From NCBI GenBank assembly GCA_964456505.1, contig CAYWAH010000001.1:37464-101463 (forward strand): DNA of 64,000 nucleotides, in the 5' to 3' direction. Positions 25,415-34,946 of this stretch are shown piece after piece. The notes beneath the pieces are model-generated. The model had not been told where the DNA came from. It made no database searches and saw nothing but the letters and a program-made list of their open reading frames with translations. The stretch is from an uncultured Clostridium sp. (GTDB lineage: Bacteria; Bacillota; Clostridia; TANB77; CAG-508). Every line of letters starts with the position of its first letter. Position 1 is the first letter of the stretch. The position numbers were made by a program, and so were the translations under genes.

Positions 25415-26881
25415 ATGTCTGATATTACAGAATTAACAGTACATGAATTAGTTGAAAAATTAAATAATAAGGAACTAACTTCGAGTGAGATTGTTGAAGC
25501 GTATTCAAAAAAAATAAAGGAAAATGATCAAAAAGTCGATGCTTTTATTTCTACATATTTAGATGAAGCAGGGAAAAAGGCAGAAGAAGTTGATAAAGAA
25601 AACATAGATAGAAGCAAATATGAATTTGCAGGAATTCCTATTGGAATAAAAGATAATATTTGTGTAAATGGCACAAAAACTACTTGCGCTTCAAAAATGC
25701 TTGAGAATTTTGTTGCACCATATGATGCTACAGTAATTGAAAAATTGAATGATGAAAAAATAATCAGCCTTGGAAAATTAAATTTGGATGAATTTGCAAT
25801 GGGGAGTTCTACAGAAAACTCTGCATTTAAAGTTACTCATAACCCATGGGATTTGAACAAAGTTCCAGGAGGCTCATCAGGCGGATGCGCTGCAGCTGTT
25901 GCAGCAAATGAGGTACCTTGGGCATTAGGCTCAGATACAGGAGGATCAATTAGAGAGCCAGCATCTTTTTGTGGAGTAGTTGGATTGAAACCTACTTATG
26001 GACTAGTTTCAAGATATGGATTGGTTGCGTTTGCGTCATCACTTGATCAAATTGGACCAATTACAAAAGATGTAAAAGATTCTGCAATGCTAATGAATTT
26101 GATTACAGGACATGATGAAAAAGATTCTACTTCTTATGATAGACCAAAAGTTGACTATACAAAATGCTTGAAAAATGATGTAAAAGGATTGAAAATCGGT
26201 GTTCCAAAAGAGTTCTTTGGAGAAGGTATTAATGAAGAAGTAAAGAACAAATTGAATGAGGCAATTGAAACATACAAATCTTTAGGAGCAGAAGTCGAAG
26301 AATGCTCATTAGATGTTGCAAAATATGCACTTGCCGCTTACTATATAATCGCATGTGCTGAAGCCAGTTCAAACCTTGGAAGATTTGATGGAATTAGATA
26401 TGGCTATAGAGCAAAAGATTATAAAGATTTGAATGATTTATTTGTTAAATCAAGAAGTGAAGCATTTGGACCAGAAGTTAAAAGAAGAATAATTTTAGGA
26501 ACGTATGTATTGTCATCAGGATATTATGATGCTTATTACAAAAAGGCACAGAAAGTTAGAACTGTAATAAAAAATAGATTTGATGAATGCTTCAAAAAAT
26601 ATGATGTTTTGTTAACACCAGTTTGCCCAACAACAGCATTTGAAATAGGCTCAAAAACACAAGATCCTATGTCAATGTATTTGGCAGATATTTGCACAGT
26701 ATCAATAAATATAGCATCTGTTCCAGCAATATCAATTCCGGCAGGCGTAGATAAAAACAATATGCCAATTGGAATGCAATTGATAGGAAATAGATTCCAA
26801 GAAGAAACAATACTTAATGCTGCATATACATTTGAACAAAAAATCAAATTTAGAGAAAATCATAAACCAATAGTAAAATAG
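25415..26881 (+). CDS. gatA: Glutamyl-tRNA(Gln) amidotransferase subunit A
   Basis: It carries the amidase signature [13 protein letters not shown], the catalytic Ser in GSDTGGSIR and the Lys in IGIKDN. The protein is 488 aa. Confidence 0.9.
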
Positions 26882-30151: not shown

Positions 30152-31081
30152 ATGGGATTAGTTAGTTCAAAAGAAATGTTTGAAAAATCAATGAAAGAGC
30201 ATTTTGCAATAGGCGCTTTCAATATCAATAATATGGAATTTGTACAAGCAATATTAGATGCTGCTGCAGAAGAAAATTCTCCAGTAATTTTACAAACATC
30301 ATCAAGTGCAATCAAATATGCAAGAATTCCATATTTGAAAAAAATGGTTGAGGCAGGATTAGAGGAACATGATGTTCCTGTGGTATTGCATTTGGACCAT
30401 GGTCCAGACTTCGAAACATGCAAACTTTGTGTTGATAATGGATACACATCAGTTATGTTTGATGGATCAAAATATGATTATGAGCAAAATGTAGAATTAA
30501 CAAAACAAGTAGTTGACTATGCACACGCACATGGAGTTGTTGTAGAAGCCGAACTTGGAAAATTAGCAGGAATCGAAGATGAAGTAAATGTTGCAGACAG
30601 TGATGCAATGTTTACAAATCCAGAACAAGCAAAAGACTTTGTAGAAAGAACAGGCTGTGATTCTTTAGCAATTGCAATAGGTACAAGCCATGGCGCATAT
30701 AAATTTAAAGGAGAGCCACATTTACGTTTTGATATTCTTGAAAAGGTAAAAGAATTATTACCAAACGAACCAATCGTTTTGCATGGTGCATCTACTGTTA
30801 TTCAAGAATATGTTCAAGAATGCAACAAATATGGAGCAAATTTACCAGGAGCACAAGGTTGCCCAGATGAGATGTTACATGAAGCAGCATTAAGAGGCGT
30901 TTCAAAAATCAATGTTGATACAGATTTGAGATTAGCTATGACTGCTGGAATTAGAAAAACATTTGTTGAAAGTCCAGAAATATTTGACCCAAGAAAATAT
31001 ATGGGACTTGGAAGAGACTACATCAAAGAGACAGTAAAACACAAGATGAGAGATGTATTTGGCTGCAGCCAAAAGGCATAG
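30152..31081 (+). CDS. fba: Fructose-bisphosphate aldolase, class II
   Basis: The protein is collinear with Bacillus FbaA, with AIGAFNINNMEF, LHLDHG (Zn ligands), GTSHGAYK and VLHGAS. Confidence 0.85.
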   Translation: MGLVSSKEMFEKSMKEHFAIGAFNINNMEFVQAILDAAAEENSPVILQTSSSAIKYARIPYLKKMVEAGLEEHDVPVVLHLDHGPDFETCKLCVDNGYTSVMFDGSKYDYEQNVELTKQVVDYAHAHGVVVEAELGKLAGIEDEVNVADSDAMFTNPEQAKDFVERTGCDSLAIAIGTSHGAYKFKGEPHLRFDILEKVKELLPNEPIVLHGASTVIQEYVQECNKYGANLPGAQGCPDEMLHEAALRGVSKINVDTDLRLAMTAGIRKTFVESPEIFDPRKYMGLGRDYIKETVKHKMRDVFGCSQKA

Positions 31082-31119
31082 ATTTTAATATGTAAAAATA
31101 ATAAATGTTAAATATATTA

Positions 31120-31260
31120 ATTTTGCATGCCCGCGCAGCGAGCAACCGGAGCGCAAGCGAAGGGCGAATGATTATACTTTCAGATCAGTAGTCCGAAATT
31201 CACTTTTTTAAAAGTGAATTGAGTGACATTATAAAAGCATAATCCGGTAAGGGCAAAAAA
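31120..31260 (+). ncRNA. GC-rich structured intergenic element (candidate cis-regulatory or small RNA) between fba and smpB
   Basis: The tract gcatgcccgcgcagcgagcaaccggagcgcaagcgaagggcg is about 70% GC in a genome below 30% GC. It is followed by a perfect 11-bp hairpin AATTCACTTTT-TT-AAAAGTGAATT (31197-31220). The 5' GCCC can pair with the 3' GGGC (ccggtaagggc). Confidence 0.3.
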
Positions 31261-31326
31261 ATTAATATATTTAACTTTAATAAAATTTAATTATAATTTA
31301 GTTAAATTTATTTAAGGAAAAATTTT

Positions 31327-31773
31327 ATGATAAAAACAATTGCGAAGAACCCAACTGCATATCACAATTACGAAATACTCGATTCAATCGAAGCGGGCAT
31401 TGTTCTTTATGGCACAGAAATAAAATCAATAAGAGCAGGAAAAGTAAACTTAAAAGATAGCTATGCAATCATTGAAAAAAATAGAGAAGTATTTGTATAT
31501 TCAATGAATATAAGCAAATATGAACAAGGAAATATCTTTAATCAAGATCCATTGAGACCTAAAAAGTTACTTTTAAATAAAAGAGAAATAAATAAGCTAA
31601 TAGGCTTAACATCACAAAAAGGTTATTCTTTAATTCCAATTGAGTTATATTTTAAGGATAATTTGGTTAAAATGAAGTTAGGCATCGGCAGAGGTAAGAA
31701 ATTATATGATAAAAGAGAAGACATTAAAAAGAGAGAAGCCGATAGAAAAATAGAAAGATATGTAAATAGGTAA
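31327..31773 (+). CDS. smpB: SsrA-binding protein SmpB
   Basis: It carries the motifs [23 protein letters not shown] and LLLNKREI. The protein is 148 aa. Confidence 0.85.
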
Positions 31774-31777
31774 GGTT

Positions 31778-32299
31778 ATGTTTTGGCTTGGACAATTATT
31801 TGGATTGATTGCAATTATTTTTATTGTAATTTCAATACAGCAAAATAATAAAAAGAAGATTTTAATTCTTCAAATTTTAAGCAATTGCTGTTATGCTTTG
31901 CAATATGTGTTTCTTGGAGCATATACAGCAACTATTTCTTGCTTGATTGGAATTTGTAGAGGAATTCTTTTTGAAAAGTTTTGCACAAACAATAAAAAGA
32001 AGAATCCAATATGGGTACTATTATTGGTAATTGCAATGTCATTAGTTAACGGAATTGCAACATATAAGGATCCATATAGTATTTTAGCAATTATTTCTCC
32101 AATTATTTATGGATATGGATTATGGCAAAATAATTTGAAATTGTTTAGAATAATTGCTTTGCTAAACCCAATTTTGTGGATTTTTTATAATATACATGTA
32201 CAAGCATATACTGGAATTATCTCATCAGTATTTGAAATTACTTCCGCTGTTATTGCAATTTATAGATATGATATAAAAAAGCAGAATCCAAGCAAGTAA
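31778..32299 (+). CDS. Small polytopic inner-membrane protein (YgjV-like)
   Basis: The 173 aa protein has 5-6 predicted TM helices. Its N-terminus LGQLFGLIAIIF...S is reminiscent of the Imp-YgjV family. Confidence 0.4.
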   Translation: MFWLGQLFGLIAIIFIVISIQQNNKKKILILQILSNCCYALQYVFLGAYTATISCLIGICRGILFEKFCTNNKKKNPIWVLLLVIAMSLVNGIATYKDPYSILAIISPIIYGYGLWQNNLKLFRIIALLNPILWIFYNIHVQAYTGIISSVFEITSAVIAIYRYDIKKQNPSK

Positions 32300-32467
32300 A
32301 AAATCATAAAATCTTTTATAAGATATTGTATTTTCTGGTTAAATAATGTAGAATAATACACAAGTTAAAGGCAAAAAGTAGAAAACTTTTTTGAACCTCT
32401 CGACAGAATATTACACAAAATACTAAAGATAAGTTGTACAATTAACGAAAAAGGTTAGAGGTGAAAA

Positions 32468-34946
32468 ATGATACAGAATATTCCGAATTATAATAATGAT
32501 AAAGTTAATAGCACAAGTGAAAGTAATACTACTTTTGATAATATAAATTTTCGTGAAACATTTTCAAAATTATTTACGATTCCAAATATTATTATTTACA
32601 TTCTTACACTAATGATTTCCATGGTTAGTTTAGGACCAAATAGTACAATGGTAATTGCACCATTTGGATTGGCTTTGGTATTTGCTCTTTCAAGTAATGG
32701 CATGCCAATTCTTATGGTTTATTTGTCATCTTTAATAGGTACGGCAATAAAGTTTCGGATTTAAAACTACTTTGATGTATGTTTTTACAAGTGCAGTAAT
32801 GTTTGCGATGATACTTACTAGAAAGCCAAAGCAAAATTATGAAGAACAAGAGCAAATGAAACTCGGAGGATATCTTGCATTATCAACATTGATTGTATCT
32901 CTTATTAAAATGATATTCACATCGTTTTACATATATGATTTAATTGTTGCATTAACTTTGAGCATAACAACATATATCTTTTATAAAATATTTGTAAATT
33001 CTACTTCTGTAATTAGAGAATATGAAGTTAAAAAAGTTTTCTCTATAGAGGAGGTTGTGGGTGCAAGCCTACTTGTTACAATTGCAGTTTCTGCTTTAGG
33101 AAATCTTTCTATATTTTCATTTTCAATAAGAAACATTATTTGCATTTTCATTGTGTTGATGCTAGGTTACAGAAATGGAATTTTATTAGGTGGTATTTCT
33201 GGTATAACTGTTGGAATTGTGCTTGGAATAATAGGTAATGCTGATCCAATTATCATTGGCACTTATGCAATTTCTGGAATGATTGCAGGTTTATTAAATA
33301 GATTTGGAAAAATTGGAGTTATTGTTGGTTTCTTTTTAGGAAACATCATTATTACTTATGCTCAAAATGGTGGTACAAATAATATCATAAAATATCAAGA
33401 AATTTTGATTGCTGCAATTGGATTATTAGCACTTCCTAAAAATGTAAAACTTGATATTGATGAAATTTTACCAAAAACAAAATTGTTGCCAGAGGCTTCA
33501 AAAGAACTTGAAGAGGGTACTGAAACAATTTTAAAATTAAATACAATTACAAAAACACTAGACAACATTTCAAAAAACACAGAAACAAAACAGGACTTTG
33601 ATAAAAACGAAGAGCTATTTGAAGATGAAGTTTCTAAACAAATTGAAGGAATGGAAAATAATATTTTATATGACTATTTTGCAGAAAATGAAAATAATTT
33701 GTTAAATGACACTTTTGAAAACATTATTGACAATGGCATTCTTACAGAGAATGGAATGATCTCAATTTTAGCTAAACACAATATCTATGTTATGAATTCA
33801 AAAAATAGTGAAGTTAATGAAAAAGAAAAACAAGAAATTCGTGATATGATAAAAGCATTAAATTCAGCTTTCAGAATTTGCAAAAATAGTGCAGTTTGGC
33901 AAAAGAAAATAATCGAAAATAACAATCATATCAATAGTGAAATCAACAATGTTAAGCAAGCAATAAATGATATTAAGGACGAAATCTCAACAACAATTAC
34001 TGAAGATGATAAGTTTAAAGAATATAAAACAAAAATAATAAATGTGCTTAAAGACAATCATATTGAATTAAAAGATTTACATATAAAGCAAGAAAAATCA
34101 GGAAAATATATTGTAAATGCTACAGCAAATGTATGTGATAGTTTCGATGGCAAGAATTGCCCAATGAAAAAAATTCAAAGAGAAATATCAAGAGCATTGG
34201 ATGAAAAAGTTGAATTACAAAATCAGGTATGTGGATTAAGAGAAGGAAAAAGCAATTGTGAATTTACATTTACATCTTGTGACAAATATGTATTGCAAAT
34301 TGGAATGGCAAAAGCTAAAAAAGACGATAGCATTATTTCAGGAGATATGACTTCTTCTGTTAGATTAAATGACGGAAAGTATATGCTTGCTATAAGCGAT
34401 GGAATGGGGACAGGCCCTGATGCTAAAAGAAATAGTAATATTGCAATAAGCATGCTTGAAAGATTATTAACATCAGGATTTAATAAGGAAACATCTATCA
34501 ACTTAATTAATTCAGCAATACTTTCTGCCAATAAGGAAGAAATGTATGCAACACTTGATGTTGAAATACTTGATTTGTTTGCTGGTAAGATTGAGATACT
34601 TAAAAATGGAGCGTGCCCAACTTACATAAAAAGAAATAAAAATGTTATCATGGTAAAATCAAATTCACTCCCAACTGGAATTGTAGATAATGTGAAAATT
34701 GATACATATGATAAGGATTTGGAAGATGGAGATATTATTGTAATTTGCTCTGATGGTATTTTAGAGTCAAATAAAGAATATCAAAATCCAGAACAATGGC
34801 TTAAATATTTGCTAGAAGATATTAACACAGATAGCCCAGAAAGAATAGCAGACATTATTTTAAAAGAATCAGTAGATAATGATTTTGGTAAGCCAAAAGA
34901 TGACATGAGTGTAATAACAATAAAAGTAAGTAGTATAAATAAATAA
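32468..34946 (+). pseudogene. spoIIE: Stage II sporulation protein E (PP2C phosphatase SpoIIE), interrupted by a +1 frameshift near 32750-32775 (N-terminal ORF 32468-32764 and main ORF 32772-34946)
   Basis: The 98-aa N-terminal polytopic fragment (GAGGTG RBS) ends at TAA 32762-32764. The remainder continues in another frame, with more TM helices, a regulatory region and the C-terminal PP2C domain (ISDGMGTG, ICSDGI). The combined length of 822 aa is close to the 827 aa of Bacillus SpoIIE. Confidence 0.7.

Follow-up and report, generated by a model that had tools for sequence, protein, structure and literature searches.

With about even confidence, we read positions 31107-31275 of the window (the whole 64-kb stretch of DNA analyzed here) as a copy of an undescribed family of non-autonomous, MITE-like palindromic elements carried by uncultured, low-GC, spore-forming gut Clostridia. 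As in MITEs, the unit has terminal inverted repeats and homologues at unrelated loci with presence or absence between close relatives. The family was found in the fba-smpB spacer, between glmS and bofA, in the spacer between a gene for a 167-aa protein and smpB, and at a site adjoining a DUF951 gene, that is, at unrelated intergenic sites and in either orientation. The combination of unrelated sites, either orientation, presence/absence and use as a breakpoint is the behavior of a mobile insertion and not of a regulator tied to smpB. Among the possibilities raised in an earlier note on this DNA, the fossil of a mobile or structured-RNA element comes closest to the evidence, which consists of a dispersed inverted-repeat family, presence/absence and a common predicted fold. 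Small palindromic intergenic repeats are well known as a kind; this family and its host clade are new, and the GC-rich multi-helix core, the very low copy number and the two balanced orientation haplotypes are unusual. The host clade consists of uncultured human and animal gut Clostridia that are known only from metagenome-assembled genomes (MAGs), and its mobile and non-coding repertoire is uncharted.

The genes fba (30152-31081) and smpB (31327-31773), both on the + strand, are separated by a spacer of 245 nt, in which a 42-nt tract (31127-31168) reaches 69% GC compared to 27.8% for the whole window. The best 40-nt stretch within this tract (72.5% GC) is the highest in the 64 kb, about 5.8 SD above the mean, and exceeds the window's sole tRNA gene. 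The tract includes the direct repeat units GCGCAGCGA (31133-31141) and GCGCAAGCGA (31151-31160), a perfect 11-bp hairpin is present at 31197-31207/31210-31220, and the distal GGGC(A) at 31251-31255 pairs with the 5' (T)GCCC at 31128-31132 in the minimum-energy fold. The earlier note had reported the GC-rich tract, the direct repeats, the hairpin and this pairing from the sequence, and all four hold up, as does its statement that the element has no coding potential: the sole open reading frame over the tract (31127-31171) comprises 14 GC-rich codons, MPAQRATGAQAKGE, with no Shine-Dalgarno sequence, and is not conserved in relatives. The extent that it proposed, 31100-31270, does contain the tract and the hairpin but overlooked a perfect 18-bp inverted repeat, GTTAAATATATTAATTTT (31107-31124/31258-31275). 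Since this repeat encloses all of the features described, the true unit is 31107-31275, an element of 169 bp made up of AT-rich arms and a 133-bp core. When the spacer was shuffled 300 times with dinucleotide content preserved, the longest perfect arm of an inverted repeat had a mean length of 9 nt and a maximum of 14 nt, compared to the 18 nt observed. The repeat search widened the inverted repeat to 37 nt at 81% complementarity (31088-31124/31258-31294, giving unstranded outer limits of 31088-31294), and this weaker outer complementarity may represent a decayed or host-derived hairpin. The 18-bp arms occur only at these two places in the 64 kb, the element is present once in the window, and no ends matching its arms were detected elsewhere in the window or in phage and plasmid collections, which likewise yielded no transposase or recombinase bearing such ends.

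The segment 31105-31277 has a predicted folding energy of -53.8 kcal/mol (z = -6.5 relative to shuffles), and the fold z-scores of family members range from -6.5 to -8. The predicted single-strand fold is a long closing stem around a four-way junction, with all parts given here on the + strand. The closing stem, P1, is formed by the two terminal inverted-repeat arms, with the left arm as its 5' strand (GTTAAATATATTAATTTT, 31107-31124, from the repeat search, shuffles and family comparison) and the right arm as its 3' strand (AAAATTAATATATTTAAC, 31258-31275, from the repeat search and shuffles); the inner part of the arm, AATATATTAATTTT, is common to other members in the family comparison. P1b follows, in which TGCCC (31128-31132) pairs with GGGCA (31251-31255) in the minimum-energy fold, both strands being supported by the family comparison as well, with a 3-nt internal loop, GCA, placed 5' of P1b by the same fold. 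P2 (GCGCAGCGAGCAACCGGAGCGC, 31133-31154), identified from the fold and the family alignment, is a conserved GC hairpin of 22 nt that contains an A.A mismatch and a bulged A and whose tip is CAA; together with two preceding C residues it constitutes a 23-nt block that is identical in the glmS-bofA copies. Folds and alignment also define P2b (31157-31165), a small hairpin of the form GC-GAAGG-GC here and GC-GGAGG-GC in other copies. The family alignment reveals two junction segments, GAATGA at 31166-31171 (family consensus GAATGR) and CGGTAA at 31245-31250 (family consensus C-R-R-Y-A-A, then GG). P3 (31170-31244), recognized by the repeat search and folds, is a long hairpin capped by the perfect 11-bp hairpin. 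P3 varies in sequence across the family, and the corresponding hairpin of other members is shorter.

When folded independently for minimum energy, the window copy and a glmS-bofA copy (L098) are predicted to adopt the same P1/P1b/P2/P2b/P3 plan, which RNAalifold also recovers from the alignment. AT-rich arms, a 5-bp helix, the conserved 22-nt GC hairpin, the GAATGR junction and a variable hairpin are common to all members, although P1b is degenerate and P2b absent or merged in the copy of contig L012. Across the family, the arms are AT-rich terminal inverted repeats of 18-25 bp with an inner part AATATATT-R-W-TTTT, and the unit measures about 115-170 bp.

The element is present in 11 of 11 contigs of the window species, always in one orientation. 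Ten further metagenome contigs with an identical SmpB have a spacer almost identical to that of the window; the window has T at 31230, where the ten others all have C, and a 19-nt deletion (31210-31228) in the L004 strain removes the 3' arm of the 11-bp hairpin. Among relatives with SmpB 62-85% identical, fba stays near smpB and the spacers are AT-rich without a GC island apart from tRNA genes; none but tRNA genes were seen as GC islands upstream of smpB in 80 metagenomic relatives and in L011, L014 and L016. The element is therefore not a conserved smpB leader. An exact 22-mer from the window is absent from fba-smpB loci in 185,579 representative genomes, which indicates that the window species is unrepresented or that its representative either lacks the element or has diverged. 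As observations on the locus itself, a tRNA gene lies directly or closely upstream of smpB in L024/L025 (1410-1490) and L031 (159-240), and a gene for a product of about 165 aa, which the window does not have, lies between fba and smpB in L012 (1222-1725), L014 (1331-1840) and L016 (1321-1830). The product of this extra gene is Gly/Asn-rich and carries a signal-like segment at its N terminus and a membrane segment at its C terminus.

That the element is a cis-acting leader of smpB, whether riboswitch or protein-binding site, or a relic related to tmRNA, is suggested by its location immediately 5' of smpB, in the same orientation and without a predicted terminator following fba, and by the second family member upstream of smpB in L012. 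We consider this barely credible. About 90 related smpB loci have no element, the L012 copy lies on the opposite strand upstream of the smpB promoter, the closest sequence relatives are located between glmS and bofA, and neither Rfam nor ARAGORN produced a match; the earlier proposal of a cis-regulatory leader for smpB is thus contradicted. In contrast, its view that the element is neither a tmRNA nor a known riboswitch agrees with our scans. ARAGORN identified only a tRNA-Leu gene (3167-3252) and no tmRNA in the 64 kb, so ssrA must lie elsewhere in the genome; in the window, smpB is followed (31773-34946) by a gene for a ygjV-like membrane protein and spoIIE, not by ssrA. The Rfam 15 scan of the whole window returned only a tRNA at gathering thresholds, and permissive scans of three family members gave a best E value of 0.27, all far below threshold. 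In annotation, this GC island should accordingly not be labelled an smpB riboswitch, a tmRNA relic or a known sRNA.

Other known categories were considered and set aside. The top Rfam match on the element itself was SscA (19.5 bits, relative to a threshold of 60), and the kink-turn that this match brought to mind was rejected as the window copy does not keep its tandem G.A arrangement. The motifs AGCGCAAGCGAAG, GGGCGAATGA and CCGAAA, which we take to be reminiscent of 23S rRNA, do not denote an rRNA-derived fragment, with local alignments to the E. coli, C. difficile and B. subtilis rRNA loci reaching z ≤ 2.9 relative to shuffles. By eye, the core motifs of hammerhead, attC and 6S elements, or their order, do not fit. 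Two small open reading frames, MPAQRATGAQAKGE and a GAATGA-ATG frame with GGAGG on its 5' side in some copies, are conserved in neither length nor sequence, and we regard the element as non-coding. BLAST against phages and plasmids (word size 11) yielded only chance matches of 22-37 nt, and three of four patterns scanned against viral contigs had no match; the one 20-mer that did, in 11 contigs of a single phage of 53% GC, falls inside coding sequence and was dismissed as chance. A literature search for the core strings and for Clostridia MITEs returned nothing relevant and no description of the family.

To survey the distribution of the element, a 22-mer from the GC tract was scanned against 185,579 species genomes (one genome per species), with two matches, both in MAGs labelled "uncultured Clostridia bacterium" that originate from Hadza and Nepali gut samples. 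In both MAGs the copy sits between the converging 3' ends of glmS and bofA and not at smpB, and the local alignment of the window copy with the glmS-bofA copy has z = 17.2 relative to shuffles. Homologues thus exist outside the strain and at other loci, contrary to the lack of conservation that the earlier note had named as refuting its view. The flanks of the two MAG loci are about 97% identical, yet the element points in opposite directions in them; its terminal inverted repeats measure 20-25 bp (L098/L099). Together with 39 additional contigs, which encode one of four near-identical BofA variants, the glmS-bofA set comprises 41 contigs from two uncultured Clostridia species (L098-L138), all of which carry the element, and no empty allele was present among them. 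No copy was seen at the glmS-bofA site of species with BofA 81%, 78% and 71% identical, the sister species included. Copy number is low, with one copy per 64 kb in the window and one exact match per representative genome, and no further family members were detected in 621 kb of sequence examined.

The glmS-bofA copies fall into two haplotypes of opposite orientation, 20 A and 19 B (about 50:50), both of which are found with identical BofA proteins. Haplotypes A and B differ by a 33-nt indel and at three positions in each arm, where the two arms have changed in concert, whereas their 95-nt cores have an identical consensus with no fixed difference even though arms and flanks differ. Orientation is fully linked to arm type and to the 33-nt indel in all 39 contigs, and the same arms were never found reversed. 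This complete linkage indicates two alleles reshuffled from strain to strain rather than ongoing inversion of the segment, and the occurrence of both haplotypes with identical BofA indicates an old polymorphism reshuffled by recombination. Given the fixed orientation haplotypes and the lack of an empty allele, movement at glmS-bofA would be old, or would not have happened twice. Being small and simple to recognize, the family would be useful as a marker of strain-level variation, with two roughly equally frequent orientation haplotypes shuffled over identical backgrounds.

These data also bear on whether the element is an invertible DNA switch (inverton), in which a recombinase would flip the segment between its inverted repeats and so alter expression of the downstream smpB. 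Inverted repeats of 18-25 bp around a 95-133 bp segment would suit such a switch, both orientations occur at glmS-bofA and, across lineages, at the position upstream of smpB, and the arm palindrome AATATATT could bind a dimer. Moreover, the window element contains a promoter-like site on the minus strand (31256->31228, 10/12 match) that would face smpB after a flip. However, this site is not conserved in other members, orientation is tied to arm type and the indel in the 39 contigs, all 11 window-species contigs have a single orientation, and glmS and bofA are convergent, leaving nothing for a promoter switch to drive. We consider an inverton very unlikely.

The bofA/glmS region of a more distant species offers a separate observation. 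There, a bidirectional terminator (L160-L163, about 1550-1595) has the stem TTAACTATA...TATAGTTAA, and the outer arms of haplotype B, CTAACTATA...TATAGTTAG, resemble this stem; the haplotype B arm contains TAACTATA...TATAGTTA, which is the stem of the glmS-bofA terminator in a more distant species. The likeness between arm and terminator hints that the element was inserted into an existing host hairpin, or it is a coincidence.

A further family member was identified in L012/L013, whose SmpB is 82% identical to that of the window, as a 106-nt GC-rich block upstream of smpB that is cleanly missing from the near-identical spacer of L016/L017. BLAST of the window core against this insert was negative; gapped local alignment with shuffles demonstrated clear homology, mainly to the glmS-bofA copy, to which the reverse strand of the insert aligns end to end with z = 15.6. 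This copy occupies the spacer between the 167-aa gene and smpB, antisense to both neighbors, with the upstream gene's terminator on one side and a near-consensus smpB promoter on the other. AATT flanks the insert, and the pair of filled and empty sites fits insertion with AATT duplication or deletion between AATT repeats with a 10-nt arm scar equally well. No clear target-site duplication was apparent in the window or L098/L099 copies.

Copies with a breakpoint inside the element point to recombination. In three independent contigs, L113 (1456-1700), L115 and L119, the left arm and core come from haplotype B and continue into a different right end that is also of the family's type, GCGACAACAAGACATAAAAAACATATATATAAATTGTTGC, and the sequence runs into a DUF951 gene instead of glmS. 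These chimeras are rearrangements with a breakpoint inside the element, produced by recombination with another copy, and they imply that a further copy exists in that lineage; in the search for this second genomic copy, the exact DUF951 protein of the chimeric contigs was not among the homologues listed. The chimeric copies mark the element as a recombination site or hotspot.

The strongest competing explanation holds that the element is a gene for a stable structured small RNA, with a long stem joining its 5' and 3' ends around a conserved four-way junction, that has been relocated or horizontally transferred among lineages, the stem possibly serving as an RNase III processing stalk. An unannotated small RNA was among the earlier suggestions, and the conserved core with covarying arms, the one-sided wobble pairs and the low diversity keep it alive as the main rival. 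The element is the strongest GC island in an AT-rich genome, and beyond its pronounced fold z-scores, diverged members have the same predicted architecture with covarying stems. In P1, 7 of 18 positions covary across three arm types, with no mismatches and one G.U pair; in P1b, UGCCC/GGGCA in the window corresponds to AUACC/GGUAU in the glmS-bofA copies, with 3 of the 5 pairs changed on both sides. For the outermost pair of P2, the window has G-C, most glmS-bofA copies have G.U and four contigs have A-U. All four wobble pairs lie on the strand shown here, and on its complement they would be A.C mismatches; with four events, this one-sided bias weakly suggests selection on the single-stranded fold and not on duplex DNA. 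A change from G-C to C-G in the P2 tip of L012 was not counted as covariation because it is alignment-dependent; MAFFT places the segment opposite P2b instead, implying that one direct-repeat unit was lost.

Nucleotide diversity within each glmS-bofA haplotype is 0.009-0.023 for the core and 0-0.02 for the arms, whereas third codon positions in the three genes that flank it show 0.04-0.09. Judged from these comparisons, the core changes more slowly than synonymous sites and is probably needed for the element's own propagation or for an RNA-level function. The element is not evolving as free junk, although history could also explain the low diversity. The slow core and the lack of fixed differences between A and B cores speak for a small RNA gene. 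On the other side, no conserved promoter or terminator occurs at a fixed position relative to the element, its orientation with respect to neighboring transcription units differs at each locus, and its absence from close relatives makes it dispensable. Additionally, some strains carry changes that break P2 or delete parts of P3, covariation of terminal repeats is equally expected of transposon ends, and the statistics are weak, with only four or five independent sequence types. We therefore regard a small RNA gene as possible but rather unlikely.

A further and distinctly less likely explanation, which we hold as doubtful, sees the conserved GC-rich four-way junction as the functional center of a mobile, structured nucleic acid of a new class, or as a new self-processing RNA. 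Here, the small RNA or single-stranded DNA would guide, or be recognized by, a recombinase acting in trans, following a logic like that of bridge and omega RNAs, and the AT-rich arms would be only a closing or processing stem. Such an arrangement would explain the conserved core, arms that merely covary, new sites and both orientations. The 22-nt hairpin and the four-way junction, conserved and under constraint, matched no described family and are a candidate for new RNA or DNA-hairpin biology.

Against the MITE-like reading stand the low copy number, the lack of a clear target-site duplication, the fixed orientation haplotypes at glmS-bofA and the variable outer arms around a conserved core, since ends bound by a transposase usually show the opposite pattern. 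An enzyme provided in trans may recognize the terminal repeats and/or the conserved 22-nt GC hairpin and insert the unit into AT-rich spacers close to gene ends, perhaps where a hairpin already exists. With no predicted terminator separating it from fba, the element would be included in read-through transcripts from fba, and its fold would then be carried in an fba-smpB transcript. As in Correia and ERIC elements, the 23-bp stem could then be a target of a double-strand-specific RNase. The element's final six bases would also sit at the expected -35 position of a TATAAT box (31292-31297) upstream of smpB; read directly from the sequence on the + strand, this possible hybrid promoter (31270-31297) joins the -10 in the flank to a weak -35, TTTAAC (31270-31275), at the element end, and falls below the scanning threshold.

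Several known systems share features with the family. Co-transcribed copies of the Correia elements form a long hairpin that is cut by RNase III, and these elements can supply promoter parts. The Correia elements (CREE/NEMIS) of Neisseria are non-coding, 100-160 bp long, bounded by terminal inverted repeats of about 20-26 bp, and lie in intergenic regions near gene ends in either orientation, so that the window element is comparable in size, repeat length and possible -35 contribution to smpB. They differ in occurring in hundreds of copies, in duplicating a TA target and in possessing an IHF site and conserved termini, whereas the element described here has one to few copies, no evident duplication, variable outer arms, a GC-rich multi-helix core and no sequence similarity to them. 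ERIC/IRU, RUP, BOX, SPRITE and the Rickettsia palindromic elements are likewise small, imperfect, non-coding palindromes in transcribed intergenic regions, foldable as RNA and variable in presence among strains, but they occur in other phyla, are far more abundant, have no strong GC contrast and show no homology in Rfam.

The C. difficile switches (flgB, cwpV, cmr) and gut invertons also have inverted repeats of about 20 bp around a non-coding segment of 150-200 bp, with both orientations at one locus. However, the switches flip within a strain on the same repeats and lie in 5' leaders, while orientation of the present element is fixed per haplotype and one of its loci lies between convergent genes. 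Integron attC sites resemble it as imperfect palindromes with structure conserved more than sequence and a variable terminal structure, and the window arm ends GTTAAAT...ATTTAAC recall the attC R'/R'' boxes. An attC identity was rejected: the order of the boxes is reversed (attC RYYYAAC...GTTRRRY), other members have no boxes, and the surroundings include neither a cassette array nor an integrase. The GC clusters of yeast mitochondria are short GC-rich palindromic insertions that are strain-polymorphic and recombination hotspots (compare PMC4478555). They share with the family the compositional contrast to an extremely AT-rich genome as well as this behavior, and differ in belonging to a eukaryotic organelle, in measuring 30-60 bp without long AT-rich terminal repeats, and in their unrelated sequence and host.

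The second-highest GC island of the window (25854-25923, 65% GC) appears to lie inside coding sequence and is unrelated to the element; by eye, it corresponds to a glycine/serine/alanine-rich motif typical of an amidase-type enzyme.
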